A DNA stretch of 64,000 bases from an uncultured Mycoplasmatota bacterium (GTDB taxonomy: Bacteria > Bacillota_I > Bacilli_A > RF39 > UBA660), in assembly GCA_900549625.1 (NCBI GenBank), contig URPE01000003.1, forward strand, positions 23,107-87,106. The letters are read 5' to 3'. The position numbers and the translations under genes were made by a program. The notes beneath the pieces were generated by a model, which searched no databases, was not told the origin of the DNA, and saw nothing but the letters and a program-made list of their open reading frames with translations. Below are positions 19,746 through 44,852 of the stretch, piece after piece. Position 1 is the stretch's first letter. Each line of letters starts with the position of its first letter.

Positions 19746-22700
19746 CTAATTAAATTGACTTTGACCTTTTGCTCTTGTCCAAGCACTAGAATATCCATTT
19801 GTACATTGTATTGCTACCCAATATAAATAAGGAAAATTGTAATTAGTATAATTAGTATGAGAAGCAATATAATTTTTTTGAGTTTCTGCTTGAGCTCTAG
19901 TTAATGTATAGTCTGTAACTACAAGGTAATATCCTGGTGCAGATGGTGCTTCACTTATTTGCCCAGTCCAACCTGCTGATTGGAATACACTTAATAAAGC
20001 TGAAGCGTTCCCATAAGGACCATGACCAGTAATTAATTGACAATAAGCTTCTGTAACTGAAGCTGTTAAAGTTACATCATAATCAGGCATATTACTAACC
20101 CAACCATTCCAGCCATGAAATTTATGATAGCTATCTAAAACATCTTGTCCATTTAAATTAGGAATTTCATCTCCATATCCAACAGATCTTTGTGTCCACA
20201 AATTATTGTTAACATAATAGTTTACTGTATAGTAATTTTTACTCCAAGTTGCAATATAATTTCTATTTCCTACTGAACCTTTAGCAATAATTACATTTTT
20301 AGTTGCTGTAGTTAATTCTGTTCCAGTCCATCCAAGAAATGTATAGCCTTTTTTAGTTGGTTGTGATAGTGCTATCGTATTAGATTCTATATTATAATTT
20401 GTTGGTTGAGATGAAATACTACCACCATCCAAATTATAAGAAATACTGTATTCTATTGGTTTCCAATTTGCAGTATACACCTTATTACCAATTGAACCTT
20501 TTTCTATTTCCACATTATCTGATGGTATTGTGCCATTATCACCAGTCCATCCAAGAAATGTATAACCTTCTTTTGTTGGTTTTGGCAATAGAAATGTGTC
20601 AGTTTCAATATTATATTTTGAAATTGATGATGACAAAGAACCACCATTTAAATTATAAGTAATTGAATAATCTATTATTTTCCAATTTGCCTTTATTTCA
20701 TGATCAAAAGAAATATTCATAACTGTGTCTTCTTTTATTAATAAATTATTATAAAACCAGCCTTCAAATGAATAACCTTTTTTTGTAGCTTCTGGTATTG
20801 TTCCATATAGGCTATTATACGAAATATCTACATAACTAGGATTAACTATTCCACTATTTGGATTTAATGATACTCTGTATACATTAGCAATCCAATTGGC
20901 TTTATAATTTTTATTACCAATAGTACCTTTTGGTATTACAACATTAATTTCTGCTCTTAAACCATTATCACCAGTCCATCCAAGAAATGTATAACCTTCT
21001 CTTGTTGGGTTTGGTAATGTTATTGCATTAGATTCTACATCAAAGTTTATTTCTTTTAAATCTTTACTACTCCCAGTATTTAAATCATATTTAATAATAT
21101 ATTGATTTTTTGTGTATTGTGCATGATAATCAACATTAGTTTTTACTGAATTAATTGATGGACTCCATCCTGTAAATGTGTATCCATCTAAAAATGGATT
21201 TTCTGGAGGTGTTGGCATATTACCATAATCAACTTCTTCTTCTTTCAAAACTCCACCAAATAAATCATAATATTTTACATTTAATTTGATTATTTCCCAT
21301 ACAGCATACAAATTAATAACATCATTATCATTGCAAGATAAATTATATATTTCTTGCTCATCTTTATAAGTAACATTACCATTTGGAATTGTAGACCATC
21401 CTAAGAAATTATAGCCTTCTTTAGTGAAAGTATTTTTTCTTAAATTTTCTTTATTATTATATTTGATTTTTGTACTTTCCATCTTTCCTGTTCCTGATGA
21501 TGAATTATAAATAATACTATATGAAATCGGTTTATAATTAGCAGTTAGTTTTAAATTACCAGTTGAACCTTTTTTTATTTCATAATTAATTTTTGGTTCA
21601 TCATCATTTTTTGATGTCCATCCAAGAAATATATATCCTTCTTTAACTGGATTAGGAAGAATTATATTTTCTTCTACATTGTAGTTAAGAGGATTATCTT
21701 CAATCACTCCTCCAACTAAATTGTAAGTTATATCATATTTTATAATTTCCCAGTTTGCACTTATCGTTATATCTTTATCTTCATTAAATACATTTTTACT
21801 AGATACTTCATTATTGTTTTCATCAGTCCAATTAATTAACTTATATCCTTTTTTTGATATTGTTGGTAATTCACCATATATCTCATCAAAATTAATTTTT
21901 TTAGGACTTATTTGCTCTCTTGCACCATTTGTGTTATATATTAACTTATATGAATTAGTTTTATAATTGGCAAGAAGTTTTATGTTACCAATTGTTCCTT
22001 GATTTATCTTATAATCAATAATAGGTTCTTTTGTTTTATCATCTGTCCATCCTAAAAATGTATACCCTTTTTTTGAAGGCTTTGGAATATCAAATAAATC
22101 ATCTTCTACAGTATAAGTTAAAGGAGCATTATCTTCAAATGCTCCTCCACTTAGATTATAAGAAATTTCATAATTATTAACATCATAAAGTGCATTATAA
22201 GTCAAATCAGTTTTTACTTCATTTACTATATCATTGTCCCATTTTGAGAATGTATAACCTAATCGCTTTGGATTTTCTGGAGCAATAACACTCTCTCCAT
22301 AGTCATACTTACTTTTACTAATAACTGATCCATCATAATCAAAAAATTCAACATTATAAGTTTCTATTTTCCACATAGCATATAAGATAATATTTTCATT
22401 ATCTTTAGTCGTTAAATTAAAAACATCCATTTCATCCAAATATATAGGTTCTCCATTTTTTTCAGTCGACCAACCTGTAAAAATATATCCCTCTTTTGTC
22501 ATTGAATTTTTAGGTAATTTACATACTTCATTGCCTTTACAGGTTATAGACTCCATTGTTCCAGAACCATCATTAGAATCAAATGAAATATAATATTTAA
22601 TTCCTTTTGCTTCTTCTACTTTTTTTCTATTTGGAACATATTTATATGGATCATCTTCTTTTTTCTTATCTTCTACTGAATCTTTGTTGTTATCAGGAAA

Positions 22701-23087
22701 AATTTTTGTTTCTGGAAAATTAATCGGATTTTTAATAGGTAATGTGTCATTTTTATTAAAAATAATTAACAATCCAAAGATTAACAATAGCAACAATAAG
22801 ATAAAGAAAAAAGGAATACGATATTTCAAAGTAATATAACTATTATTACCAACGAAAACATATCCCTTATTAAATCCTAACATTTTGGTTTTCACTTCAT
22901 ATTTCTCATTTTTAAAATATAGTAAATCCAATTCTTTTTTTTCAGAATTGGATTTATATTTTTTTAATTTAGTACATCCAATAACAATATTATTTTGGTT
23001 TTTCTTTAACTCTTTTCTTGTTATATATGGAATTTCTTTATAATATTTTGAATTTTCATGCTCAATAACATTATAACTTTTACTCAT
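19746..23087 (-). CDS. Membrane-anchored surface protein with ~14 Listeria-Bacteroides (Flg_new-type) repeats
   Basis: TM at about aa 90-110. The motif GY(T/I/N)F(L/T/S)GW(T/S) recurs about every 70-80 aa. The ~170-aa C-terminal domain is non-repetitive. Confidence 0.7.
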   Translation of the reverse strand: MSKSYNVIEHENSKYYKEIPYITRKELKKNQNNIVIGCTKLKKYKSNSEKKELDLLYFKNEKYEVKTKMLGFNKGYVFVGNNSYITLKYRIPFFFILLLLLLIFGLLIIFNKNDTLPIKNPINFPETKIFPDNNKDSVEDKKKEDDPYKYVPNRKKVEEAKGIKYYISFDSNDGSGTMESITCKGNEVCKLPKNSMTKEGYIFTGWSTEKNGEPIYLDEMDVFNLTTKDNENIILYAMWKIETYNVEFFDYDGSVISKSKYDYGESVIAPENPKRLGYTFSKWDNDIVNEVKTDLTYNALYDVNNYEISYNLSGGAFEDNAPLTYTVEDDLFDIPKPSKKGYTFLGWTDDKTKEPIIDYKINQGTIGNIKLLANYKTNSYKLIYNTNGAREQISPKKINFDEIYGELPTISKKGYKLINWTDENNNEVSSKNVFNEDKDITISANWEIIKYDITYNLVGGVIEDNPLNYNVEENIILPNPVKEGYIFLGWTSKNDDEPKINYEIKKGSTGNLKLTANYKPISYSIIYNSSSGTGKMESTKIKYNNKENLRKNTFTKEGYNFLGWSTIPNGNVTYKDEQEIYNLSCNDNDVINLYAVWEIIKLNVKYYDLFGGVLKEEEVDYGNMPTPPENPFLDGYTFTGWSPSINSVKTNVDYHAQYTKNQYIIKYDLNTGSSKDLKEINFDVESNAITLPNPTREGYTFLGWTGDNGLRAEINVVIPKGTIGNKNYKANWIANVYRVSLNPNSGIVNPSYVDISYNSLYGTIPEATKKGYSFEGWFYNNLLIKEDTVMNISFDHEIKANWKIIDYSITYNLNGGSLSSSISKYNIETDTFLLPKPTKEGYTFLGWTGDNGTIPSDNVEIEKGSIGNKVYTANWKPIEYSISYNLDGGSISSQPTNYNIESNTIALSQPTKKGYTFLGWTGTELTTATKNVIIAKGSVGNRNYIATWSKNYYTVNYYVNNNLWTQRSVGYGDEIPNLNGQDVLDSYHKFHGWNGWVSNMPDYDVTLTASVTEAYCQLITGHGPYGNASALLSVFQSAGWTGQISEAPSAPGYYLVVTDYTLTRAQAETQKNYIASHTNYTNYNFPYLYWVAIQCTNGYSSAWTRAKGQSQFN

Positions 23088-27569: not shown

Positions 27570-28721
27570 CTACTTCTTTCTTATAGATAAAACAGCAGGA
27601 TTTACTGTTCCTTTTTCATCAGCATCTTCGATTCCATATTTTTTATTCCAATGTTTTCTATATTCTTCACCTTGTTTTGAAAAATGTGATAATGCGTTTG
27701 CTGTAGCACCAGCCATAAAACCACTTAATCCTAACTCTTCATCATAAACTTGTTGTTCTGCTTCTTCAAAAGAAATACCTTCTTCCATTTTTTTCATCAT
27801 AGATATAGTTGCTTTTACAACAAATACTGAATAACCATCATTACTATTATTATCAGCAAATTGTAACCACTCTTCTGCTGTTTCTGGCTTAACTAATGTT
27901 AATCCTTCCCTCATTAAAGTATATTTCATTTTTTTAGCCTCAGCATCCCCTTTTTCTTTTGCTTCAGCCCATGCTTTATCTTGTTGTTCTTTTTCAGCTT
28001 GTTCAGCATCTACTATTCTATCACCAAATATTAATCTTTTAGAAGCAAATATATCTTCAGCTTTTCTTCTATCATATTCAGGTTCAATAAATGGATTTGA
28101 ATATAATACCTCACCATCTTTTGAAGTTATATCAGAAATTGCAGCTCCATATCCAACAAATGGTATACCACTATATCCAATTTCTACATTTATAAAATCA
28201 GTTACATTCTTTAATTCAGCTGTTTCTTCTTGCTTAACACCATACCACCATCCTGTGTATGATACATCTTCTCCAATATGTTCTCTTAATTTTTCAAACA
28301 TAGCTTTTGCTTTTGACTCTTTGTCTTGTTCTTTTTGAGCTATAAGTTCATCAAAAGTCATATCTCCTTCTTGCATTGGTAAAAATGATCCTGCTTGAGT
28401 ATGACAAACATATTGATAACCATTTCCTTCCATGTTACTAATTAGTATTCTATAATCTGGATTATTTCCATACTGTGCTTTAACTTCATCTAAACTTAAT
28501 CTCTTACCATAATAAATCCATTTTGAAAAATTTGATTTTTCTCCATCAAAACTTTTTTCACCATCTACAACAAATTCTTTGTCATAAAAACGAAAGCCTT
28601 GCATTTTACCATCATTTTCAATTTTCATTGGATCTCTTTCTTCAACTTCTGAAATTGAAGATTCACTAAATAATACTCCTCTGTAAATTTTTTCAACATA
28701 ACTTTTCTTTACTTTTTCCAT
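27570..28721 (-). CDS. Hypothetical protein (first gene of cassette A)
   Basis: 383-aa ORF with RBS AAGGGGGA. No motif recognised. Confidence 0.55.
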   Translation of the reverse strand: MEKVKKSYVEKIYRGVLFSESSISEVEERDPMKIENDGKMQGFRFYDKEFVVDGEKSFDGEKSNFSKWIYYGKRLSLDEVKAQYGNNPDYRILISNMEGNGYQYVCHTQAGSFLPMQEGDMTFDELIAQKEQDKESKAKAMFEKLREHIGEDVSYTGWWYGVKQEETAELKNVTDFINVEIGYSGIPFVGYGAAISDITSKDGEVLYSNPFIEPEYDRRKAEDIFASKRLIFGDRIVDAEQAEKEQQDKAWAEAKEKGDAEAKKMKYTLMREGLTLVKPETAEEWLQFADNNSNDGYSVFVVKATISMMKKMEEGISFEEAEQQVYDEELGLSGFMAGATANALSHFSKQGEEYRKHWNKKYGIEDADEKGTVNPAVLSIRKK

Positions 28722-28747
28722 ATCAATATTTCCCCCTTTTGCAGTCG

Positions 28748-28918
28748 CAAAGTGTAATACTATAAGAAAAAGTAATATCTATTTGCTATTTCATTAGTAT
28801 TTTAATATTGTTTTTTTAATATGATTAAAAAACATATATGGTCAAATTTGACAATTGCTCATTTTTATGTTAGAATACAAGCCATATCAAGCAGAAAATC
28901 TCAAAGTATTACACTTTG
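28748..28918 (+). promoter_or_regulatory. Candidate invertible promoter, switch A. The promoter currently faces away from gene 27570-28721.
   Basis: IR CAAAGTGTAATACT at 28748-28761, with its exact reverse complement at 28905-28918. Between them, on the plus strand, are TTGACA (28848-53), a 17-nt spacer and TGtTAGAAT (-10 at 28871-76). The right IR is part of the hairpin TCTCAAAGT-ATTAC-ACTTTGAGA, followed by TTTTATTTTT. Confidence 0.6.
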
Positions 28919-28923
28919 AGATT

Positions 28924-29811
28924 TTATTTTTGCAATTTTTTTATGTGCTCTAATTCAACCTTTTCACCTGTAAATTTGTTAATATAATCAAACATAGAAT
29001 TTGCATCATCAATAATATCATATCCTTGCACACCCATTTCTTCAGGGCGACAAATTACAATATCATTTTCAGCAAGAGAAATTACTTTTCTAATTGTATA
29101 GTCATCACAGGTTCTACCATAGCCACTTGTCCAAGCACTAGTTATATCTGGAGTCTGTTCCATTAATCTAAATACTAATCTTCTAAAAAATGATGGATGA
29201 GAAAACGGAAAAAACAATTTTTGTATATTAAGCCTTTCTCCACTCTTTTTTAGATTCAATTTAACATAATGTATTTGATTATATTCACTAGACATAGTAA
29301 AAACATTTAATCCTACACTAAATCCCATATTCTCTAAAATTTCAACAATACTTAATGTGATCGCACCACGATTAAAAATTTCGTTTGATGATGCCATTGC
29401 CAAATTAGCTGCATTAAAGTATATATCTATATGTTGGCGTTTTGGATATTGTCTATTTAACATAGAAAGTGGGTTACCTTCTAAATATGCTTTAACATCT
29501 GGAGCATAACCGACATAAAAATTATATTGTTTGCTTTTTTTTCTAGATAATTTTATATACTTTTCTAAGGTATTTTTTAATTCAACAAGTTTCTCAAAAT
29601 TGTCATGATAACCATACTTACACAATTCCTTTGCTTCTTCTAAAGATTGTGTTTTACAAAAATCATAATCTCCTGTTTCACTTGATAAATTTCTATATCC
29701 CCATACTCCACTATTTATTGGTGCATTCTCAATATAATCAAGAAATTCTGCTATGGAATCAAAATCATATTCCATAATATCATAATCATCTTTTTTATAA
29801 TACTTATACAT
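28924..29811 (-). CDS. Hypothetical protein, partner of the AAA ATPase
   Basis: 295-aa ORF that begins 1 nt after the ATPase stop. No motif recognised. Confidence 0.5.
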   Translation of the reverse strand: MYKYYKKDDYDIMEYDFDSIAEFLDYIENAPINSGVWGYRNLSSETGDYDFCKTQSLEEAKELCKYGYHDNFEKLVELKNTLEKYIKLSRKKSKQYNFYVGYAPDVKAYLEGNPLSMLNRQYPKRQHIDIYFNAANLAMASSNEIFNRGAITLSIVEILENMGFSVGLNVFTMSSEYNQIHYVKLNLKKSGERLNIQKLFFPFSHPSFFRRLVFRLMEQTPDITSAWTSGYGRTCDDYTIRKVISLAENDIVICRPEEMGVQGYDIIDDANSMFDYINKFTGEKVELEHIKKLQK

Positions 29812-29812
29812 A

Positions 29813-31558
29813 TTATCTACTCAATCTTAAACGCTTAATACCATCATAGTATTTATTGTCAGAACTTATATTTTGCATATTACCAATTATTGTATTCACA
29901 TCATCTTGTCCCAAATTTTTTACAACATTAGATGTTAATGTATCATTAACAGGTATTCCGTTTATTTCTTTCTTATATACTTTGCCAATACCACGAGTGG
30001 AAACAATGTGAGGTATTTTTGATTGATATACTGCATTTCTAAATGCCCACATAAATTGTAAAACTTCATCATTTGGATATAACGCTTTTTCTAAATTTGT
30101 ATCATAATCAAAGAATATGTTATCAAATCTATCTAGTGTTGCTCCATCTAGTGCATTTCTTCCTACATATTGTAAGTCTGCACCTTTTCCCCATGTATTT
30201 GCTGCTGCAATTATTCTAAAATCAGGATGCCTATCAATTGTTTCGTGTGGAAAAGCCATATATCCATTAGCAAGTGCTGAATTTATAACAATAAGTGCTG
30301 AGGGATCAGAATTATCTATTTCATCTAAGAAGAATATTCCACCATTTTTAAATGCTTTATAAAATTCTGTATCTCTATAATTACCACCTGCGTCTATAAA
30401 GCCAGTTAATTTAAACTCATTTGAAGCATTATTGGTATAATACATATGTTGTCCCAAAGCGTCAGCCACTTGTGATATAGCAACATTTTTACCACTTCCT
30501 GCTGGACCAATTAACATAATCGGTTCATCTAATTGTACCTGTGATAAAATTTGCTCAAATTTTTCATGATAGAATCCACCTTTAGTTTGTCCTAATACAG
30601 TATCTTTTAATTTAATAATATGAACAACTGGTACATCTATTCTACTGGCATATTCTGAAAGTTTTTCGTCAAATAATTCATTTAATTTATCAGTTATTTC
30701 ATGTTCTAGACTAAATTCTTGAAGTGTATTCTTAATTATTTGCAATATTTGTTTCCTTGTTTCAGTATCTAACTCATTCAAAATAAAACTACTTACTTTT
30801 TGTTGTGGATCTCCAGAAGATAGATATTCTTCAATATTTTCTTCTATTTTAGTTCTTATAGCTTCATCTGTAACTTGAACTAATAATGCATTTAATCCAT
30901 CAATTATTGAATCAGCATTTTGTTTTGTTTTTTTAATTAATACTGGATCTTTTCCTTTTTCTACTTTATCACCATCAATTGTGAAAAGTTCTCCATTTTT
31001 CATATATGTGTTTTCATCCATTTCATGAACTTCTTCACAAAATTGTTGTAAAATATCTGCATCATTTGAAAACATTATTTCGTTATTTCTTTTTGTATAT
31101 CCATAATATAAATGAGTATATTTACTATTAGGTTCTGTTACACCTGCAATAATGTCTTCACTATTATTGTCATATATAACTGAACAAAAGTGCATATATT
31201 GACTCAATTTTTTAAACATATTTTCTCTGCTATCAGCATATAAACAGTTGGTAATTCTTTGATACCTATCAGAATCATCAATACCATATTTTGAAAAATT
31301 TCTACATGCTCTTTCTACTTCATTTTGATTATATCCATTTACTGATAAAATTCCAGTCCTTGAATCATAATGTGGATCTCTATCTTCTACATAATTATCA
31401 TAAATTATTTTAGCAAAAATTAAATCATTAGCAGTTTTATATTTTACCGTATAATTACTTGGGCAAATTCTATCTAATGCTCTATAAATATCATTTTCTT
31501 CATATTCCTTTCCTTTATAGGCAATAAAAATTTGTCCACTTTTTTCTGTATTTTCCAT
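29813..31558 (-). CDS. AAA+ ATPase (AAA_5 / MoxR-McrB-like C-terminal domain) with an unknown ~330-aa N-terminal region
   Basis: Walker A (LIGPAGSGKN) and Walker B (GIFFLDEIDN), plus an arginine-finger-like region GRNALDGATLDRF. RBS GGGGGAAAA. Confidence 0.7.
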   Translation of the reverse strand: MENTEKSGQIFIAYKGKEYEENDIYRALDRICPSNYTVKYKTANDLIFAKIIYDNYVEDRDPHYDSRTGILSVNGYNQNEVERACRNFSKYGIDDSDRYQRITNCLYADSRENMFKKLSQYMHFCSVIYDNNSEDIIAGVTEPNSKYTHLYYGYTKRNNEIMFSNDADILQQFCEEVHEMDENTYMKNGELFTIDGDKVEKGKDPVLIKKTKQNADSIIDGLNALLVQVTDEAIRTKIEENIEEYLSSGDPQQKVSSFILNELDTETRKQILQIIKNTLQEFSLEHEITDKLNELFDEKLSEYASRIDVPVVHIIKLKDTVLGQTKGGFYHEKFEQILSQVQLDEPIMLIGPAGSGKNVAISQVADALGQHMYYTNNASNEFKLTGFIDAGGNYRDTEFYKAFKNGGIFFLDEIDNSDPSALIVINSALANGYMAFPHETIDRHPDFRIIAAANTWGKGADLQYVGRNALDGATLDRFDNIFFDYDTNLEKALYPNDEVLQFMWAFRNAVYQSKIPHIVSTRGIGKVYKKEINGIPVNDTLTSNVVKNLGQDDVNTIIGNMQNISSDNKYYDGIKRLRLSR

Positions 31559-31578
31559 ATTTTCCCCCTAACAATCTC

Positions 31579-31735
31579 AAAGTATGATACTTAAAGAAAA
31601 TCTTTAGAAACATAGACTTTATATATTAAGAAAATATATATGACCAAAAACTTTAACCTTTGAGAATTATTGACAAATAAAAAAAATATGGTATTATATA
31701 TTGCAGTCAAAAAAAGTCCCAAAGTATCATACTTT
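31579..31735 (+). promoter_or_regulatory. Candidate invertible promoter, switch B. The promoter faces away from gene 29813-31558.
   Basis: IR AAAGTATGATACTT at 31579-31592, with its reverse complement at 31722-31735. Plus strand: TTGACA (31670-75), a 16-nt spacer and TGgTATTAT (-10 at 31692-97). The right IR hairpin is followed by TTTCTTTTTTT. Confidence 0.6.
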
Positions 31736-31753
31736 AAGACTTTCTTTTTTTAA

Positions 31754-32215
31754 TTAAATTGATCTTTTATAACTTTTTTCTTGTTCCATTTTTTCATGAA
31801 TTTTTGGAGCAACAACTTCCTTATTAGCTCTAATATACTCATCCCAGTTTTTGTGAGTTGGTCCAAATTCTTCTTCATAAGAAGGAACTCCCTCAACTTT
31901 AACTGAATCATCTAAAAATGGTATTGCATAACATAATCCTAAATTTCCTTGAATTTCTTCCTGAGTATAAGCACCACATCTTAATGCCATTAATGTTCTG
32001 TTATACTTTCCCATATCCTTATTGCTACAATCACTATATAGCATCCAAATTTTTCCACTTCTAATATCCAAAGAATCAAGTAGTAAAATATCTAATAATC
32101 CTTTTGGATTTTGTAACATTTGCATTAAAACTGTTAACGCACCTGGATTTCCTTCAGACATGACCATCATCATATCCATCATATTCATATCTCCTGTTAT
32201 CTTTTCATTTCCCAT
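31754..32215 (-). CDS. Hypothetical protein (cassette C)
   Basis: 153-aa ORF with a Met-rich N-terminus. RBS AAGGGGGA. No motif recognised. Confidence 0.5.
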   Translation of the reverse strand: MGNEKITGDMNMMDMMMVMSEGNPGALTVLMQMLQNPKGLLDILLLDSLDIRSGKIWMLYSDCSNKDMGKYNRTLMALRCGAYTQEEIQGNLGLCYAIPFLDDSVKVEGVPSYEEEFGPTHKNWDEYIRANKEVVAPKIHEKMEQEKSYKRSI

Positions 32216-32240
32216 CTATAATTCCCCCTTTAACTATCTT

Positions 32241-32407
32241 AAAGTTAAAAACTAAAAGAATTATAAAGAAATAGTTCTATTTTATTAAATATACATAAAA
32301 AAAGAATATAAGAGGTTTATATTCTTTTTTGGTCAAATTTGACAATTGCTCATTTTTATGCTAGAATACAGCACATATCAACGAGTTATCTCAAAGTTTT
32401 TAACTTT
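32241..32407 (+). promoter_or_regulatory. Candidate invertible promoter, switch C. The promoter faces away from gene 31754-32215.
   Basis: IR AAAGTTAAAAACT at 32241-32253, with its reverse complement at 32395-32407. Plus strand: TTGACA (32339-44), a 17-nt spacer and TGcTAGAAT (-10 at 32362-67). About 60 nt around the promoter are nearly identical to switch A. The right IR hairpin is followed by TTTTTTT. Confidence 0.6.
32296..32330. terminator. Bidirectional terminator-like hairpin inside switch C
   Basis: AAGAATATA-agaggtt-TATATTCTT, flanked by an A-run on the left and a T-run on the right. Confidence 0.5.
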
Positions 32408-32416
32408 GAGATTTTT

Positions 32417-33772
32417 TTATCTTCCATATCTTTTATTAAATTTTTCTATCTGTGATAATGGTCTATTAGTCTTTCTTAAAACTTTTTCTGAATCTGTATT
32501 TTGTTCCAAACCTTGTCTATAAGTTTCAACATTTCTTATTTCATCATAACTAACAGTTCTTCCACTTAATAAATCAAATATTGATTCTCCTAATACGACA
32601 TCTTGTTCTCCGAAATATAAATGTTTTATTACCGAATTTGCTATATAGCCTTTAGAAAAATAGACATCTAATTCTAAAGCTGTAGGCATTGGTTGATTTA
32701 TATTTGATAGTGTTGGAATAGTAATATTCAAAGAATTATTTTTTATTTCTGTTGAATATTTATGTGAATGACCATGTAATATTATTGGTGCTGTTGTTTG
32801 ACGCATTCCACCAGCTTCAATATGATGATACAAATGAATTTTGTCATTTTTCAAATTAATTCCAGTATTGTTATAGCCCCCAATAACAATATCGTGTCTA
32901 AAATTATTACACATTTCTATTATATCCAAAGAGGCTGTGTTAAAGGCACTTATATCATGATCTCCAGCAACACTAAATGTTAAAATACTTTTATCTTGAG
33001 GATAATTTTTTATAAAATACTCTATTTGTTCATATAAATCAGATATTTTTTGTGTTCCTCTAGTAAATGTTCCATCTATAAGATCTCCACCACACAAAAT
33101 AATATTTATACCATTCTTTATACAATAATTATAAGCACGATCTATAAGATCAATTCTTTCTAATTCATTTCCAAAATGTAAATCTGATATTAATAAAAAT
33201 TTCATACTATTTTCATTTGTATCAGTAATAATAGTTCTATCTTGTTTAGCATCCATATAATTTTTTAAATCTTGCATTGTTGAAACATTACTATACTTTA
33301 TAGAACCATCAGAATAATATTTTCTACTATGTCGTATACCTCTATTTTTTAATTTTAATAATTCATCATATAATTGGCTAGATGAAATATTAAGACTCTC
33401 ACATATTTCCCTATTATTTTTTCCTACTTTCAATAATTGCAATAATTGAGCCGAATAATCAACAACTTCTATTTCTGGTTTTTGTTGTACCAATCTATTA
33501 TCTTGTTCTACTGACTTAGGCAAATCTACTGAATCAGTATTCTCAGAATCTTTAGAAAGTAATCTTTTCATCTTAGGAACTATAGTTCCATAATACTTTT
33601 CACTATTTTCCTTACTCCAATTCTTTTGTGGTGATGGATTATGTAAATCATTTCCAAATCTGGATCTGATAATTAACTTTTCATCAATAGACAATCCATA
33701 TATCATATCATCAATTTGCTTTTCAGTATAATCACTAAAATATTCATATACTGTTTGTAATTTTCTTCCCAT
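32417..33772 (-). CDS. Metallophosphoesterase (calcineurin-like) fused to an N-terminal HTH / sigma-region-4-like region (cassette D)
   Basis: Motifs LLISDLHFGN, GGDLIDG, VAGDHD and HGHSH. The N-terminus has IYGLSIDEKLIIRSRFG and NNREICESLNISSSQLYDELLKLKNRG. Confidence 0.7.
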   Translation of the reverse strand: MGRKLQTVYEYFSDYTEKQIDDMIYGLSIDEKLIIRSRFGNDLHNPSPQKNWSKENSEKYYGTIVPKMKRLLSKDSENTDSVDLPKSVEQDNRLVQQKPEIEVVDYSAQLLQLLKVGKNNREICESLNISSSQLYDELLKLKNRGIRHSRKYYSDGSIKYSNVSTMQDLKNYMDAKQDRTIITDTNENSMKFLLISDLHFGNELERIDLIDRAYNYCIKNGINIILCGGDLIDGTFTRGTQKISDLYEQIEYFIKNYPQDKSILTFSVAGDHDISAFNTASLDIIEMCNNFRHDIVIGGYNNTGINLKNDKIHLYHHIEAGGMRQTTAPIILHGHSHKYSTEIKNNSLNITIPTLSNINQPMPTALELDVYFSKGYIANSVIKHLYFGEQDVVLGESIFDLLSGRTVSYDEIRNVETYRQGLEQNTDSEKVLRKTNRPLSQIEKFNKRYGR

Positions 33773-33796
33773 AATAACCCCCTTCGAATGTTTCTT

Positions 33797-33963
33797 AAAG
33801 TTTAAAACTAAATGAAATATTAGAATTTGGGTTTTATTATCGAAGTTTTATACTATATTTTTTCAATTATATATTGTTCCAATTTTGTCAGATTTGACAA
33901 AATTATACTTATATGATAGTATATACGCTATGTTTACGGATGAATCTCAAAGTTTTAAACTTT
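33797..33963 (+). promoter_or_regulatory. Candidate invertible promoter, switch D. The promoter faces away from gene 32417-33772.
   Basis: IR AAAGTTTAAAACT at 33797-33809, with its reverse complement at 33951-33963. Plus strand: TTGACA (33894-99), a 17-nt spacer and TGaTAGTAT (-10 at 33917-22). Confidence 0.55.
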
Positions 33964-33979
33964 GAGAAAAAAATAAATC

Positions 33980-34462
33980 TCAACTATTGGGATTTATTTT
34001 TTTTGTTAACTTTTTAGGAAGATTGTCGGTTGTATCATATAAAGCTTGATTTAGTATATTAATATCAAAATCAAAATCATTATATCCTTGCAAACATGTA
34101 GATACATATTTTTTTGATGGAATATGATAATTATAACTTTTATTCATTATATAAATAAGAGCTTTTTTCTTTTTTCCTTCTACTTGTATTGGAATATAAA
34201 ATTTAGAATATGAGTTAGGATAACCTTCATAATCATCTAAAGAAAGAATATCAAAGTATGAAACTTCGAATAATCCTAATGGTACTTCTGATCCTTTAGA
34301 TTTTTCTATAGTTAAATATGCAAAATTGTCAGCTAATCCTTTATACACTAATCTATAATCTTTTAAATTCATTTTGCCTATCGGCTTTGCTGTTGGACAC
34401 CTATATTTCATTTGTTCCAAATTCAGATTACTTCCATACGCCAAATAATATTTTTTAAACAT
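33980..34462 (-). CDS. Gamma-glutamylcyclotransferase (AIG2/GGCT-like)
   Basis: YLAYGSNLNLEQMKYRCP N-terminal signature and DDYEGYPNSY. The ATG at 34462 has an AGGTG RBS, whereas the longer ORF start at 34516 overlaps the amidoligase gene. Confidence 0.7.
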   Translation of the reverse strand: MFKKYYLAYGSNLNLEQMKYRCPTAKPIGKMNLKDYRLVYKGLADNFAYLTIEKSKGSEVPLGLFEVSYFDILSLDDYEGYPNSYSKFYIPIQVEGKKKKALIYIMNKSYNYHIPSKKYVSTCLQGYNDFDFDINILNQALYDTTDNLPKKLTKKINPNS

Positions 34463-34472
34463 ATTATCACAC

Positions 34473-35471
34473 CTACTTAATAAATTTCTTAGCCCTTGCA
34501 GCTGTTTTAATACCATAATTTTCTTGAAAATCCTTTAAATATTGTCTTAAAAAATACATTTTATCTACATTATTATCAAATACTAAATCAACAAATTCTA
34601 GTGCATTCTTTAAATTAACTTCATTATATAAAAATTCATTACCTGAATATGATAAATATTCATGAGTAAGCTTATAATCTAAAAAATCTTCATCCATAGC
34701 TTTATCCCTAGATGACAATAACATCTTTGATAAAGTATTAATATTATTTTGCCATACTACTTCATTTGTTGTTGCGTTTGGGCTTCTAAATTCCAGTGTA
34801 TTTTTACCATATCTATACCATGGATCACAAAAATCAACATTACAAAAGTTCAAGGCTGCATATCTTTCATTGGTTTGTAAATTCCAGCGAATATCAGATA
34901 TTGAATTTGCCTTACTTATATCAGACATTCTATTATAAATTAAATCTGCTGTTGGTGGAGCATATTTAAATAACTTTTTTCTACCACTAATTTTATCTCC
35001 ATATATAAATCTAAACAAAACATTTTCATAAGCCGTATATAATTTGAGAAAACATTTCCATGCTTCTACATCTTCTCCTAATATACTTGCACCAATATGA
35101 ATATGCCCACCTGCATTATGCAATGTATCTGCTTTTCTTTTTGAAAGATGTTCACAAACTTTCTTTAGTTCTTTCCAATACCTAATATTATCTGACATAA
35201 CAGGTGATGTAATTTCGCCACCAGAACTTAATGAACCATCACTTTTTGAATTCCAATCTCTTAGATTTTTTGCTATAAAGTTGTCTGTTAACGATTTTAA
35301 AATACCTTCATACTCTATTTCGATTCCAAATGTTACATCATTAGGCAAATTTAATGTATCTCTATATTCTAAAAAATAACGGTTAGTTTCTACCAATAAA
35401 TTTTGTAAATCTACTCCTCTTAAAAATGAAAAATTATCATTTCTTTTTTGATTCATAAATGTATTATTCAT
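34473..35471 (-). CDS. Amidoligase-family enzyme (glutamine-synthetase-like fold, Amidoligase_2 type)
   Basis: Motifs FGIEIEYEG, SDGSL..GGEITSP and AGGHIHIG. Linkage to GGCT matches the described amidoligase neighbourhoods on mobile elements. Confidence 0.6.
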   Translation of the reverse strand: MNNTFMNQKRNDNFSFLRGVDLQNLLVETNRYFLEYRDTLNLPNDVTFGIEIEYEGILKSLTDNFIAKNLRDWNSKSDGSLSSGGEITSPVMSDNIRYWKELKKVCEHLSKRKADTLHNAGGHIHIGASILGEDVEAWKCFLKLYTAYENVLFRFIYGDKISGRKKLFKYAPPTADLIYNRMSDISKANSISDIRWNLQTNERYAALNFCNVDFCDPWYRYGKNTLEFRSPNATTNEVVWQNNINTLSKMLLSSRDKAMDEDFLDYKLTHEYLSYSGNEFLYNEVNLKNALEFVDLVFDNNVDKMYFLRQYLKDFQENYGIKTAARAKKFIK

Positions 35472-35484
35472 TTTACTATCACCC

Positions 35485-36339
35485 TTATATTCTTCTTAAT
35501 TTATAAGAATATCCATCAATACTACTATTATTATCATTGTTTAGCATTGACAAATTTTCTTGTTTCATTTTTAAAATTTTTTTCATTGTATCTAACTCTT
35601 CTTTATTTATTTTTCTAAAAGAAGGTTCATATTCTCTCAATTTATCTCTCATATATGTCTTTACAAATATTTTTTCTAAAAGTCTAACATTATTACCATA
35701 GGATAATACTAAAACTATATACCATAAAGAATGCCAAAAATTTTCACTTTTTGTTTCTAATCTTGTAATAGTTTCTTCTTCAGATTCTGAATGATCAATC
35801 ACAATTATTGCATCAGAATTATATATTTGATCTTCTGGATTTAAAGCGTTTTTCTTTACTGTTTTTATATCAGTTATGACTAAAGCATTATCTATATCAT
35901 CTTTTGTCATTTCTAGAATCTTCTCTTTATTTTCTAAATCAATATCATCATTCAATCTATATGAAGTAACAGTTCTTTCATAAAGACCTTGTTCATTTAC
36001 AATCCATCCAGTTGAATATTCTATTAATTCATCATCATAATCGAAATCATAAGATAAGTGTTCAAGATGAATTCCACTAGAAGTGTCTATAGTTTCAATA
36101 CCAGCTTTTTCAACAATTTCATCTACACGAAATGGTGCATTTCCTTTTGATGTTTGTGCATTAGCAATAATCATTGCTACTATAATAAACGGAAGAGCAT
36201 AATCTACTGCTATACCACTTTTTATTAACGATCTCACTACTGCATTACGAATATTATATAATTTTCTATGTTCTATTTTGTTTTGCAATCTATTAGCATC
36301 TTTTGTTAGTTTTTTCATTAACTCATTATTATCTATCAT
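35485..36339 (-). CDS. Two-TM membrane protein (paralog of 36329-37219)
   Basis: Coiled-coil N-terminus, then TM, a ~150-aa loop and a second TM. Shares the PF(H/R)xDEI motif after TM1 with the upstream gene. The ATG at 36339 has a GAAGGG RBS. Confidence 0.5.
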   Translation of the reverse strand: MIDNNELMKKLTKDANRLQNKIEHRKLYNIRNAVVRSLIKSGIAVDYALPFIIVAMIIANAQTSKGNAPFRVDEIVEKAGIETIDTSSGIHLEHLSYDFDYDDELIEYSTGWIVNEQGLYERTVTSYRLNDDIDLENKEKILEMTKDDIDNALVITDIKTVKKNALNPEDQIYNSDAIIVIDHSESEEETITRLETKSENFWHSLWYIVLVLSYGNNVRLLEKIFVKTYMRDKLREYEPSFRKINKEELDTMKKILKMKQENLSMLNNDNNSSIDGYSYKLRRI

Positions 36340-37219
36340 TGTTTTTACCCTTCTTTGTTCTTGAAAGAGATAAAATTTTTTCATTTGTTAATGCTAATTC
36401 TTCTTGCATTGGTTTGATTGCCTTAATTCTATAATTATAATCATTATTAGTACGCTTTAATTCCCATAAATATTCAAAATCCCTGAAATAAGCAATAGTT
36501 CCACCTATTCCTAGTCCAAGAATAAGCTCAACAATAGTAATAACAACATTTTTTAAATCTGTTTCATTATATTTTAGAGTGTCATTTTTATCTAACATGT
36601 GCAAACTAGCTTCAAAAAAATAGTCCATTTTTTCTGTTTCATCAATGCTATTAACTGTTTGTTTCTCCTCTTTATAATCCTTTAGATTTTCTTCTATATA
36701 TGAATAATCCTCTTCTAAAACAGCATTAAATAATTCTAATGAATTTAATTTATCTATATCATATTCTCTTTTATAACGAGTATACTGACTATTCTCATAT
36801 TTCCATGGAGTATATATAGTTAATTCATTTGATGGTAAATTGTCGTCAAGCAACCCATTTGTTCTATATGATTCATCCATAGTTACATAGCCATTTGTTT
36901 GATAATCTAAATCATATAATTTATATTTAGTAATTTCATCAGTATGAAATGGTAAGCCTCCACCAAACATTTTAAATACGCCAACAGTTAATCCTGCTGT
37001 AATTACAAAAGGTGCAACAAAATTACAAGTATTACCAAATATTTTTAAATTCCTTATATTTAGTTGTTTAAAATTTTCTACTCTTTGCTCTGCAATTTGC
37101 TTTTCTAATTGAATTGTTTTTTCTCTTAAATCTTGAAGTTCTTTAATTTGACTTTTTCTTTCTTTTATTCTTCTTTGCTCTGATTGTTGTTTTTGTTTTC
37201 TAGTTTTTCGATTGCTCAT
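36329..37219 (-). CDS. Two-TM membrane protein (first gene of cassette E)
   Basis: The ATG at 37219 (MSNRKTRK...) has RBS AAGGGGGA. The ORF-track start at 37243 is a non-ATG codon inside the IR. Confidence 0.5.
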   Translation of the reverse strand: MSNRKTRKQKQQSEQRRIKERKSQIKELQDLREKTIQLEKQIAEQRVENFKQLNIRNLKIFGNTCNFVAPFVITAGLTVGVFKMFGGGLPFHTDEITKYKLYDLDYQTNGYVTMDESYRTNGLLDDNLPSNELTIYTPWKYENSQYTRYKREYDIDKLNSLELFNAVLEEDYSYIEENLKDYKEEKQTVNSIDETEKMDYFFEASLHMLDKNDTLKYNETDLKNVVITIVELILGLGIGGTIAYFRDFEYLWELKRTNNDYNYRIKAIKPMQEELALTNEKILSLSRTKKGKNNDR

Positions 37220-37242
37220 TTTAAGTCCCCCTTTTATTCTCA

Positions 37243-37407
37243 AAGTGCATTACTTTATGATAATCGCTTTGAATGCACTATATAATATCATAAATTCATA
37301 AAAAGTCAAGTTTTGGAAGAAACATTATGATTATTGAAACTGGTCAGCTGAAAAGAAAATCCCCTTTTTTATGTGGTATATGAATCTGTTCTCAAAGTAA
37401 TGCACTT
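37243..37407 (-). promoter_or_regulatory. Candidate invertible promoter, switch E. The promoter faces INTO the operon 37219-33980 (ON-like orientation).
   Basis: IR AAGTGCATTACTTT at 37243-37256, with its reverse complement at 37394-37407. Minus strand: TTGACT (37309-04), a 16-nt spacer and TGaTATTAT (-10 at 37287-82). The spacing (84 nt, then promoter, then 25 nt) mirrors switches A-D. Confidence 0.6.
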
Positions 37408-37420
37408 AAAGTAATTATTA

Positions 37421-37460
37421 AAAGAAAAATGAGCATAGTTAGAGTAAATCCAACTATGCT
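37421..37460 (-). terminator. Rho-independent terminator of the recombinase gene
   Basis: Minus strand: AGCATAGTT, an 11-nt loop and AACTATGCT, followed by CATTTTTCTTT. Starts 1 nt after the stop codon. Confidence 0.65.
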
Positions 37461-38555
37461 TTATTTGTAAAATGGTTTTAATTGATTCATCATTAAAACT
37501 TTATTTTCATAATTTGGGTGAACATATCTTTCTAATGTTATTTTGACGCTTGAGTGTCCCAATATTTCACTTAATGTTTTAGGATCACATCCGTTTTCAA
37601 TACATCTTGTTGCAAAAGTATGTCTTAATGCGTGAAAATTATACTTTTCTAATTCAATAGAGGTAAGGATTTTTTTATATCTGTTAAAAAAAGTTCTTGA
37701 TTCAACAAATTTTTCTGTTCCAGATATTAAAAATGTATTTGGTGTTGCATCAACAGATAATTCTTTTAGTGTAGGAATAATAAAATCTGGTATTGGTATT
37801 TCTCTTATTGATGATGCAGATTTTGGTTCATCAATAATAACAATAGTTTTTTTCTTAGGGTTCTCTTCTGGATTTTTAATTCTTACTAAAGTTTTCTTTA
37901 TATTTATTTTTTTATTATTTAAATCAATATTTTTCCATTGGAGAGCACATAATTCACCAATTCTCAATCCAGTATATAAACATAGATAAATACCAAAAGT
38001 TGTTTCATTTAGATTAGACATCAATTCTTTTTCTAGTATTAATTGTTCTTCCTTCTTTAAAATTTGTATTTCTGTTTTTGGTACTTTTGGCATAGGAATT
38101 TTTATATTAATATCCCCTGTTTTCAAAATTTGTTGTAATATTATTAATATATCTTTGACACTTTTAGCTGCCAATCCCTCATCAAGTAATTCAGCCGTAA
38201 ATTTATTTATAATATCTAGTGATATTGTTTTTTTCTTAACTTTTGCAAACTTAGGAATTATTCTTGATTTTAGAGTATATTGATAATTTGAAAAGGTCGA
38301 TTTTTTATTTTTAATTTTTGAATTGTTCATCCACAAATTAATATCATAACCAATATAATTTTTATCAAATATCAATAAATCATTATTTTGAAATAATTCT
38401 TCTATTTTGTTTTTGTAATTCTCAACTACTTCTTCCTCATTACTACCGTAAACAGATTTGTAATTAGATGTCCCATCATCCCTGTAACCATAATGAAATC
38501 TAATTTCAAACCTTCCATCCTTTCTCGAATAAATGTTTTCAATGTCTTCTTTCAT
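37461..38555 (-). CDS. Tyrosine site-specific recombinase (integrase/invertase family)
   Basis: Catalytic-domain motifs GLRIGELCALQWKNID and HALRHTFATRCIENG...LGHSSVKITLERYVH. The ATG at 38555 has an AAGGAGA RBS. Confidence 0.85.
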   Translation of the reverse strand: MKEDIENIYSRKDGRFEIRFHYGYRDDGTSNYKSVYGSNEEEVVENYKNKIEELFQNNDLLIFDKNYIGYDINLWMNNSKIKNKKSTFSNYQYTLKSRIIPKFAKVKKKTISLDIINKFTAELLDEGLAAKSVKDILIILQQILKTGDINIKIPMPKVPKTEIQILKKEEQLILEKELMSNLNETTFGIYLCLYTGLRIGELCALQWKNIDLNNKKINIKKTLVRIKNPEENPKKKTIVIIDEPKSASSIREIPIPDFIIPTLKELSVDATPNTFLISGTEKFVESRTFFNRYKKILTSIELEKYNFHALRHTFATRCIENGCDPKTLSEILGHSSVKITLERYVHPNYENKVLMMNQLKPFYK

Positions 38556-38783: not shown

Positions 38784-39233
38784 TTAAGATATAATATCTG
38801 GATTATCAGTTCTTCCTAAAATATAATCGACAGATTTATTATAGAATTGAGCAATTATAACTACCTTCAATGTTGTTGGTTTTCTATCACCAACTTCAAA
38901 ATGTGAATAAGTTTGTTGAGCAAATCCGAGTTTTTCAGATACTTGTTCCTGAGATAGTTTAGCATCTTTTCTTAACTTAGCAAGTCTTTCACTAAATAAA
39001 GTCCAATCAACAAGCAAATCCCTATCTGGAGTATTTTTATTTCTTGTTAATCCTAACATATAATCAAATGTAACTTTATAATAATTTGCTAATACATTTG
39101 CTTGTTCTACTGGCATATCGTTAATTTCATTCTCCCACTTAGAATATGTATTTCTTTTTACTTTTAAAATATTAGCAATATCTCCTTGCCTTTTATCTTT
39201 TTCTATCCTCAACTCTTCAAATCTAGCCGTCAT
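38784..39233 (-). CDS. XRE-family regulator with two tandem HTH domains
   Basis: Two HTH_3-like units (QGDIANILKVKRNTYSKWE and QEQVSEKLGFAQQTYSHFE). Paralog of 48055-48507. Confidence 0.7.
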   Translation of the reverse strand: MTARFEELRIEKDKRQGDIANILKVKRNTYSKWENEINDMPVEQANVLANYYKVTFDYMLGLTRNKNTPDRDLLVDWTLFSERLAKLRKDAKLSQEQVSEKLGFAQQTYSHFEVGDRKPTTLKVVIIAQFYNKSVDYILGRTDNPDIIS

Positions 39234-39435
39234 TGCAATCACCTACATATTATTTTAAAGTAATTGCAACTAATTATTGACTTTTGGGACGCTATGGGGT
39301 AAAATTAGTATGTAGTAAAGTATGCAGTATAATATCAAATGGGAAAATACCATATTGATTTATATTGCATTTTTTTATTATAATTTTACTGTTAAAGAAT
39401 GGAGGTGAAATAGATTATTTCGTATATTAGGGCAT

Positions 39436-39459
39436 AAAAAAACTTCTATTTGTTAGAAG
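39436..39459 (-). terminator. Rho-independent terminator overlapping the stop codon of 39446-39670
   Basis: Minus strand: CTTCTA-ACAAA-TAGAAG followed by TTTTTTT. Confidence 0.55.
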
Positions 39460-39670
39460 CATCTTTTGTAATAACTATTTTCATGTTATGAATTTTTGCA
39501 ATATGTAATAATGTATCAACGGTACAGTGTCTACTTCCAGATTCTAAAGATTGTATACTTCGTTCTGATCTATTAATAGTTTTGCCAAACTCTTTTTGAG
39601 TTAGTCCAGTCCACTCTCTCAAAATTTTCAGAATATCTTCAGTTGAGTATCCTTCAGCCTGTAATTTCAC
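39446..39670 (-). CDS. Small XRE/Cro-like HTH protein
   Basis: 74 aa with LTQKEFGKTINRSERSIQSLESG. Confidence 0.6.
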   Translation of the reverse strand: MKLQAEGYSTEDILKILREWTGLTQKEFGKTINRSERSIQSLESGSRHCTVDTLLHIAKIHNMKIVITKDASNK

Positions 39671-44736: not shown

Positions 44737-44852
44737 TTAAATGCATCAACTCTTTCAACTACTATTTATTTAACTATTATTTCAAACACTTTAATTATAA
44801 CATAAAAAAGCAAATCTTATTATAGATCTGCTTGATAAATTGTAATTTATGA

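Follow-up and report, generated by a model that had tools for sequence, protein, structure and literature searches.

Introduction

Phase variation by promoter inversion is known mostly from surface structures and, on the integrative conjugative elements (ICEs) of Bacteroidales, from resistance or capsule genes. Recombinases that act at multiple sites are also known, RecV and Mpi among them. RecV of C. difficile (cwpV, flgB, and cmrRST) and FimB/FimE of E. coli (fimS) are tyrosine recombinases that flip short segments bounded by inverted repeats (IRs), with RecV serving several dispersed sites. On IncI1 conjugative plasmids, one plasmid-encoded tyrosine recombinase, Rci, carries out multiple inversions at the sfx sites of the R64 shufflon. 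Here we analyze a stretch of 64,000 nt from an uncultured Mycoplasmatota bacterium (URPE01000003.1 of assembly GCA_900549625.1, positions 23,107-87,106 of the forward strand), hereafter called the window, which is part of a Gram-positive-type ICE. In the cargo region of this element we found five promoter-bearing modules (A to E), three of which (B, D, and E) are inverted in other assemblies of the same element. All five are bounded by sites of one architecture with a centre specific to each pair, and this type of site is associated with one family of tyrosine recombinases. We consider it very likely that the modules are invertons of a single family, arranged as a tandem array in the ICE cargo region of an uncultured gut Bacilli lineage and operating by the orthogonal-site mechanism that we propose below.

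Invertons are already known, including ICE-borne examples in Bacteroidales. In Bacteroidales, all genes for antibiotic resistance (ARGs) that are phase-variable are located on ICEs, and one class of these genes under invertible promoters (IP-ARGs) has two adjacent invertible regions downstream of the invertase, with near-identical IRs (Yan, Hall & Jiang, 10.1101/2021.04.26.441444 / PMC8748976). The locus described here resembles those systems in that an invertible promoter follows immediately downstream of a gene for a candidate invertase in the variable cargo region of an ICE. It differs in that the known examples belong to Bacteroidota, use other IR and promoter motifs, and have one or two switches, while there are five here over 8.7 kb. 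The cargo also differs, being antibiotic resistance or capsular polysaccharide (CPS) genes in Bacteroidales and phage-like and anti-defence-like enzymes here, where each pair of sites has its own spacer.

Architecture of the modules

The five modules are listed below in window coordinates, each with its two sites, the centre (spacer) of these sites, its predicted promoter, and its state in this assembly.

Module A, 28745..28921: sites 28745-28767 (TCGCAAAGT-GTAAT-ACTATAAGA) and 28899-28921 (TCTCAAAGT-ATTAC-ACTTTGAGA); promoter on the plus strand, 28848-28876; OFF
Module B, 31575..31739: sites 31575-31597 and 31717-31739; spacer ATGAT/ATCAT; promoter on the plus strand, 31670-31697; OFF
Module C, 32237..32411: sites 32237-32259 and 32389-32411; spacer TAAAA/TTTTA; promoter on the plus strand, 32339-32367; OFF
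Internal bidirectional hairpin of module C, 32298-32330
Module D, 33793..33967: sites 33793-33815 and 33945-33967; spacer TTAAA/TTTAA; promoter on the plus strand, 33894-33922; OFF
Module E, 37238..37412: sites 37238-37260 and 37390-37412; spacer GCATT/AATGC; promoter on the minus strand, 37309-37282; ON

An initial annotation, made from the letters of the window, had drawn attention to five IR pairs in these positions (28748/28905, 31579/31722, 32241/32395, 33797/33951, and 37243/37394), and we recovered all of them, perfect over 13-14 bp and 129-143 nt apart. These IRs are the cores of 23-bp quasi-palindromic sites with the consensus TCTCAAAGT-N5-ACTTTGAGA, which bound all five modules. The half-sites, TCTCAAAGT and ACTTTGAGA, are roughly 9-12 bp each and common to all modules, while the N5 centre is particular to each pair, asymmetric, and, as the initial annotation had also pointed out for all five pairs, inverted between partners. 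With three or fewer mismatches allowed, the 23-bp pattern has 8 matches in the window compared to 0.05 expected, and all eight lie within the five modules; the two sites outside these matches, C-left and D-left, are weaker copies. The shorter pattern AAAGT-N5-ACTTT has 7 matches in the window, where 0.32 would be expected. Unrelated perfect IRs of 13-14 bp are also present in the AT-rich DNA of the window, and such a repeat is not rare on its own. The significance of the IRs lies in the motif and layout that the five modules have in common rather than in their length.

Every module has a predicted near-consensus promoter with a TG extension, with 11/12 matches in A, B, and C and 10/12 in D and E. 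Between 26.4 and 39.8 kb there are four promoter sites with 11/12 matches, and A, B, and C account for three of them. A distance of 76-84 nt separates the far site from the start of the -35 element, and the end of the -10 element is about 23-26 nt from the near site. The promoters of A-D lie on the plus strand and point away from the minus-strand gene that each precedes, while module E is mirrored so that its promoter points into its operon; both placement and direction are as the initial annotation described them. Start codons follow 20-27 nt past the proximal site, close to the spacing it had given, and each stands behind a G-rich ribosome-binding site (RBS). The RBS is not the same throughout, as had been claimed, but AAGGGGGA in A, C, and E, TAGGGGGA in B, and AAGGGGGT in D. 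In A-C, the promoter-proximal site together with an outer T-run reads as an intrinsic terminator, and in D a second hairpin just beyond the site does so. The distal sites of A and C score as intrinsic terminators, 25 nt downstream of the promoter.

The -35 hexamers of the A, C, and D promoters fall within a palindrome of 12-16 bp (GTCAAATTTGAC / TTGTCAGATTTGACAA; 28839-28854, 32330-32345, and 33885-33900). In the window this palindrome is confined to these three promoters, and at 3 mismatches it shows no statistical enrichment. It could be an operator for the helix-turn-helix (HTH) regulators of the element (38784-39670), or a back-to-back -35 element.

Inversion across assemblies

Through exact look-ups of the window's proteins we obtained other, independent assemblies of this element, derived from gut metagenomes of about 19 samples, and in these we compared the interior of each module with its flanks. 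The loci and contigs compared with the window carry L-numbers (L001, L003 ... L078). Module E has the window's orientation (ON) in L003, L068, and L069 and the opposite orientation in 12 of 16 assemblies, giving a tally of 4 ON and 12 OFF. Module D was flipped in two of 18 assemblies (L011 and L061), and module B in one of 15 (L067). For E (L001) and D (L011), the sequence is that of the window with the segment from IR to IR reverse-complemented, base for base, and for B (L067) it is the predicted IR-to-IR flip apart from a 1-nt homopolymer change and one single-nucleotide polymorphism (SNP). The assemblies that show the inversion of B, D, and E are otherwise 98-100% identical. After a flip the inner half-sites are exchanged, as expected for a crossover within the spacer, and the crossover can be placed only to within the 13-14 bp of identity. 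Neither misassembly nor homologous recombination explains these differences well, because the IRs, at 14 bp, are below the k-mers of assemblers and do not have the length that RecA-type recombination needs. D-ON and E-ON were each found in two sequence backgrounds, namely the window type and a variant in which module A is 93-94% identical, and the flips are therefore recurrent.

The initial annotation had interpreted all five modules as DNA-inversion switches, one ON and four OFF. Its assignment of states agrees with ours for this assembly (E ON, A-D OFF), and inversion itself is borne out for B, D, and E, which are seen flipped. For A and C, we infer inverton status from their homology with these three.

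Contigs that carry cargo genes are much more broken up than those that carry a conjugation gene of the same element. Blocks with the gene of the DUF7192 protein behind module B peak at 2-5 kb (74/153), about the size of its cassette, while those with a conjugation gene peak at 20-50 kb. Such fragmentation is what one would see if heterogeneous modules interrupted the assemblies, but it is only suggestive.

Site family in other genomes

A search for the perfect palindrome across 185,579 species genomes gave 44 loci. The matches in high-GC genomes and in Bacteroidota/Flavobacterium are lone hairpins without a partner and are probably due to chance. About 16 loci in low-GC metagenome-assembled genomes (MAGs) from guts, on the other hand, hold about 20 further modules in which a partner site with the reverse-complement centre lies 141-178 nt away, and in most of these a strong promoter is found 22-39 nt from one of the sites. 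More than 15 different centres occur among the MAG modules. The centre is reverse-complement-identical within each of at least 25 pairs and differs between pairs, with one mismatched hybrid (L012, discussed below). Core sites of tyrosine recombinases consist of two inverted arms around an overlap of 6-8 bp that must match between the partners, and the sites described here share with them the conserved inverted arms and the matching centre.

The species-representative genomes that carry the modules are low-GC MAGs labelled as uncultured Bacilli, Tenericutes, or Firmicutes, from the guts of humans, rabbits, and mice. Relative to the start of the adjacent gene, their modules occur in both ON and OFF states. 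For example, the modules upstream of operons homologous to the AAA_5/DUF7192 operon behind module B are ON in L045 and OFF in L048. In L018, an E-like module lies upstream of a gene that is homologous (62% identity) to the first one of the E operon. The centre of this module is ACATT/AATGT compared to GCATT/AATGC in the window, so that the two IRs have changed in a compensatory way. Short arrays, with two or three modules next to a recombinase gene, occur again in L014, L016, and L018.

Candidate recombinase

Directly upstream of module E, with its end 49 nt from the module, lies the gene for our candidate invertase:

37461..38555, minus strand: tyrosine recombinase (Int), candidate invertase, 364 aa (Pfam Phage_integrase, PF00589, 3.5e-28)

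The nearest solved structure is that of Tn1549 Int. In 11 MAG loci, a homologue is encoded no more than 8 kb from a site. Those of 54-79% identity within this distance are in L014, L016, L018, L022, L040, L044, L052, and L054, while homologues of 38-45% identity in L020, L023, L055, and a contig from a viral collection, L078, are enclosed by a pair of perfect inverted sites, which are separated by 1.1-1.4 kb and have reverse-complement centres. These recombinase-enclosing segments, all flanked by TCTCAAAGT-N5-ACTTTGAGA sites, are:

L020, 4144-5531: segment enclosing the recombinase gene
L023, 518-1906: segment enclosing the recombinase gene
L055, 859-1969: segment enclosing the recombinase gene
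L078, 5862-7249: segment enclosing the recombinase gene

The 1.39-kb segment is inverted between L020 and L023, whose flanks are collinear, and in both loci an outward-facing TTGACA-17-TATAAT promoter stands at one end of the segment, beside a gene for a protein of 712-1213 aa. In a plasmid collection, Int has its nearest relative on Ruminococcus albus pRUMAL02 (37.7% identity), where there are no core sites in the vicinity. The initial annotation had put this recombinase forward as the enzyme behind the switches, and what stands of that proposal is an association (11 relatives, three of them enclosed).

When module E is OFF, its promoter faces the 3' end of the recombinase gene, and all that stands between the two (37413-37460) is the int terminator hairpin (37432-37460), which has a weak T-run on the plus strand. 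Antisense transcription into int might couple the state of E to recombinase levels.

Proposed mechanism

We propose that the half-sites would serve as the binding arms of the recombinase and T-N5-A as a 7-bp strand-exchange region, the enzyme being the 364-aa tyrosine recombinase. A need for homology in T-N5-A would limit recombination to the two partners of one module, and the five switches would therefore flip independently of one another, without deleting or inverting the cargo between them. As a centre of odd length is never palindromic, the polarity of a site would always be defined. In the OFF state, the promoter would run away from the operon into the perfect-palindrome site, where the outer T-run (A-C) or the second hairpin (D) would terminate transcription. 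In the ON state, the same hairpin would lie in the 5' untranslated region (5'UTR) without a T-run, to be followed by the RBS and, 20-27 nt on, the start codon. With terminators between the cassettes, each operon would depend on its own switch. The outcome would be a heritable and reversible ON/OFF choice for each of the five cargo cassettes, which appear to be mostly OFF in natural populations.

A number of points weigh against this reading. Module A was not flipped in any of 15 assemblies, nor module C in any of 17, and a scan of metagenomes from the Joint Genome Institute (JGI) with the A/C promoter returned one contig, with a hybrid A/C module, and no flipped A or C. The combinatorial phase variation that the initial annotation envisaged is possible, but no consensus assembly has more than one switch ON. 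The orientations come from consensus assemblies, and the differences between samples could in principle be rare fixed events. The 364-aa protein looks like an ordinary integrase of the ICE/phage type. It reaches no curated NCBIfam cutoff, those of the invertase models included (its match to "tyrosine-type DNA invertase" has an E of 6e-6, far below the cutoff), and its N-terminus, which has no family match, resembles an arm-binding domain by eye. That it flips the modules is supported by association, namely adjacency and co-occurrence. The promoters and the termination are predictions from consensus. Orthogonality may also be leaky, as the spacers of C and D are one base apart (TAAAA and TTAAA).

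Gated cargo and element context

The genes that the modules precede are as follows.

Cargo A, 27570..28721, minus strand: 383-aa protein with a C-terminal Tad4 (Thoeris-inhibitor) domain (PF25186, 5.9e-20)
Cargo B, 28924..31558, minus strand: AAA_5 ATPase (CobS-like, phrog_249) and DUF7192 protein
Cargo C, 31754..32215, minus strand: 153-aa orphan protein without a family match
Cargo D, 32417..33772, minus strand: 451-aa calcineurin-like metallophosphoesterase
Cargo E, 33980..37219, minus strand: four-gene operon for 296-aa and 299-aa unknown proteins, Amidoligase_2, and a GGACT gamma-glutamyl cyclotransferase

These functions are guesses at the level of domains. Several of the cassettes match PHROGs of the phage category "moron/host takeover", and PADLOC assigned no defence system to any cargo protein.

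Elsewhere in the window there are genes for a VirD4-like coupling protein, a VirB4-like ATPase, a CHAP hydrolase, a primase, a DNA methylase, and giant SpaA/Flg_new surface proteins. The element was found within contigs of 235-460 kb from human gut metagenomes, and is therefore integrated. With a type IV secretion system (T4SS), a coupling protein, a relaxase (encoded left of the window edge), and chromosome-sized contigs, the window is part of an ICE of the Gram-positive type. The block that is conserved between assemblies ends on the right at about 44,840-44,850 (...GATAAATTGTAATTTAT), beyond which the flanks of different assemblies diverge, and about 44,850 is probably the right end of the ICE. 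The conserved block extends to this point, and the genes at 41.3-44.7 kb, for a two-component system and an ABC transporter, therefore belong to the cargo of the element and not to the chromosome.

In L073, L076, and L077, an insertion of the IS110 family sits within this end, a few bases from it. One of the surface proteins, a Flg_new-repeat protein of 1113 aa (19746-23087 in the window; 16725-20059 in L008/L063), has 1111 or 1113 aa across assemblies and is split into 62 + 1049 aa in one of them, which could mean that a surface gene of the element varies in length or by frameshifts.

Alternative explanations

We considered whether the array could be a cassette platform similar to an integron, in which the adjacent recombinase uses the sites to take up, cut out, and exchange cassettes and the inversion of promoters is secondary. 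The array begins beside the recombinase gene, and the content of its cassettes differs between close relatives. In the variants L072, L074, and L075, in the region that corresponds to 31.5-37.5 kb of the window, the E cassette is absent together with module E, so that module D adjoins the recombinase gene, and a module with the centre of B (ATGAT) gates a 506-aa sigma-70-like protein instead of AAA_5/DUF7192. The homology between the window and L072 stops at the outer edge of the distal site of D. Rearranged modules also occur. In L012 (OIYO01004659.1, 430-620), a hybrid beside a Tad4 gene has the left site of A (GTAAT) and the promoter-proximal part and right site of C (TTTTA), and should be locked because its centres are mismatched. 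In L026 (5780-5840), an A-like distal site and the -10-proximal part remain without a partner, as a decayed half-module downstream of a DUF7192/AAA_5 operon (about 90% identical). The partner sites, however, are inverted and not direct, and the difference in spacers between modules would block site-specific excision. We saw no circular or excised forms of the cassettes. The junction in L012 lies within a promoter stretch of 52 nt that A and C share at 92% identity, which fits homologous recombination, and the hybrid probably arose in this way with deletion of the cassettes between. Taking both sides together, we think it unlikely that exchange is the primary role of the sites, and we prefer to see them as parts of promoter invertons, beside whose inversion cassette exchange may be an added function.

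With respect to classification, the array does not belong to the integrons, as each unit has its own promoter and its sites form inverted pairs; models of integron integrases match the recombinase weakly, in the C-terminal box only (45 bits compared to a cutoff of 265). In L061 (5130-6400), an IS3-like element (HTH_28 + rve) is inserted in the internal hairpin of module C (about 32298-32330 in the window), and module D is flipped ON in that locus.

Another explanation accepts the modules as invertons but has them flipped by a different enzyme, either a recombinase of the host or a 314-aa protein with a Resolvase domain, so that the adjacent recombinase is merely the integrase of the ICE. This would be in keeping with the resemblance of the adjacent enzyme to Tn916/Tn1549-type integrases and its arm-binding-like N-terminus, and the element does encode a PF00239 protein, the 314-aa one (L057, 13885-14829), about 3.8 kb left of window position 1, between SSB/NT5C and ArdC. 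From established recombinase mechanisms, however, a 23-bp site with a centre of odd length appears to fit a 7-bp overlap of the tyrosine type and not a 2-bp stagger of the serine type. Homologues of Int with as little as 38% identity still accompany the same core site, also within an invertible segment. The 314-aa protein has RVANS at the catalytic RVS motif, and a homologue of it did not turn up in the loci that bear modules. At the right end of the element (about 44,850) there is no inverton-like core, and the Int gene lies about 6.3 kb inside it; judged by this end, Int looks like a dedicated invertase rather than the enzyme of integration. We therefore regard a different enzyme as quite unlikely and retain the adjacent recombinase as our candidate.

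The 314-aa protein has its PF00239 match only in the C-terminal half and no evident HTH domain. We rejected it as the invertase on the grounds of its atypical motif and the absence of homologues near modules elsewhere. A serine invertase system of the Hin/Gin/Mpi kind can likewise be set aside, as the adjacent enzyme belongs to PF00589, the 5-nt centre is odd, and the sole PF00239 protein has RVANS.

A further interpretation is that nothing inverts, and that the sites are static terminators or 5'UTR hairpins beside plus-strand promoters that make short antisense or small RNAs. The terminator-like distal sites of A and C, 25 nt past the promoter, would give transcripts of roughly 50 nt, and chance alone does produce perfect 13-nt IRs in other parts of this AT-rich sequence. 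However, the RNAs from the two sites of one module, on opposite strands, would be identical and not complementary, and the window contains no known RNA families (Rfam) and no tRNAs. The pair-specific reverse-complement spacers across more than 20 modules would be left unexplained. The precise inversion of B, D, and E in other assemblies refutes this interpretation for these three modules, and we consider it very improbable overall.

Finally, promoters of the Frpo type, in which a hairpin of the transferred single-stranded DNA (ssDNA) makes a "backward" promoter drive early expression of cargo in the recipient, would suit the anti-defence flavour of the cargo, the single orientation of all genes of the element, and the fact that a duplex promoter pointing away would point into the gene in a hairpin, but we rejected them as highly improbable, since the ssDNA folds (A, C, and E) pair only the 14-bp ends and leave -35 and -10 unpaired or in small local hairpins, outside any long imperfect stem, the z-score for E is only -1.3, E is mirrored, B, D, and E flip, and the array is not obviously in the leading region because SSB, ArdC, and the relaxase are encoded more than 30 kb away from it, beyond the left edge of the window.

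Comparison with known systems

If the five modules are independent invertons, one Gram-positive ICE would place five cytoplasmic cargo cassettes under individual flip-switches, among them a protein with a Thoeris-inhibitor domain and genes of phage type (amidoligase, GGACT, and CobS-like), which would widen the range of phase variation. It is intriguing to consider that they form an orthogonal inverton platform, linked to the recombinase, with which the ICE bet-hedges a repertoire of host-takeover or anti-defence functions, with orthogonality residing solely in the 5-nt centre and with cassettes gained, lost, and swapped between elements by way of these sites and the promoters they have in common, in the manner of integrons; we offer this fuller picture tentatively and consider it rather doubtful as a whole. 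If it is true, the states of the cassettes would be written in DNA and travel with it on transfer, and donors would export many ON/OFF combinations at the cost of few. The array opens questions about the bet-hedging of anti-defence or takeover functions, about multi-bit memory in DNA, and about the fragmentation of assemblies at the cargo region.

The initial annotation had known of no description of such an array on a conjugative element. This needs tempering, as invertible promoters on ICEs are known, but in the literature we searched there was no Gram-positive ICE with five independent switches in tandem, and only the work on Bacteroidales ICEs and general surveys of invertons came up; the coverage of this literature is incomplete and makes this weak evidence. 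Within the same incomplete coverage, we found neither natural orthogonality through conserved arms and a pair-specific centre nor phase-variable cytoplasmic cargo of a phage-like or anti-defence-like kind.

RecV and FimB/FimE resemble the present system in that a tyrosine recombinase acts on short IRs around a segment bearing a promoter or regulator. They differ in serving dispersed chromosomal loci that govern mainly surface or motility traits, and FimB/E are roughly 200 aa long without an N-terminal extension, compared to 364 aa for the enzyme of the window. To our knowledge, no shared palindromic core with pair-specific centres has been described for them. The segments that enclose a recombinase gene (L020, L023, L055, and L078) recall Hin/Gin/Cin, where the gene also lies inside the invertible segment, and the outward promoter of L020 and L023 gives the layout of hin-fljBA. 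Here, in contrast, the recombinase is of the tyrosine type and the centre of odd length, and in the window the recombinase lies outside the switches. The R64 shufflon has one common crossover sequence, shuffles its segments jointly, and rewrites the C-terminus of pilV, whereas the sites described here have heterospecific centres, the segments flip alone, and it is a promoter that moves. Integrons share with our array a set of cargo genes beside a tyrosine recombinase gene and a cassette content that varies between relatives, but the array lacks folded sites of the attC type and a common Pc. Its units have promoters of their own and inverted partners with unit-specific centres, and its recombinase is not IntI-like.

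The closest parallel to the proposed mechanism is engineered. In lox511/lox2272 and the FRT variants (FLEx), the same arms with differing spacers give orthogonal pairs for one enzyme, and inverted partners lead to inversion. Those sites have 8-bp spacers and 13-bp arms, while the sites described here are natural and their orthogonality is suggested by comparison of their centres. With conserved arms and a pair-specific 5-nt centre, nature would have its own equivalent of the heterospecific lox sites made by engineering. This design would suggest a simple rule by which a single recombinase can operate many independent switches next to each other and leave the order of the DNA between them intact.

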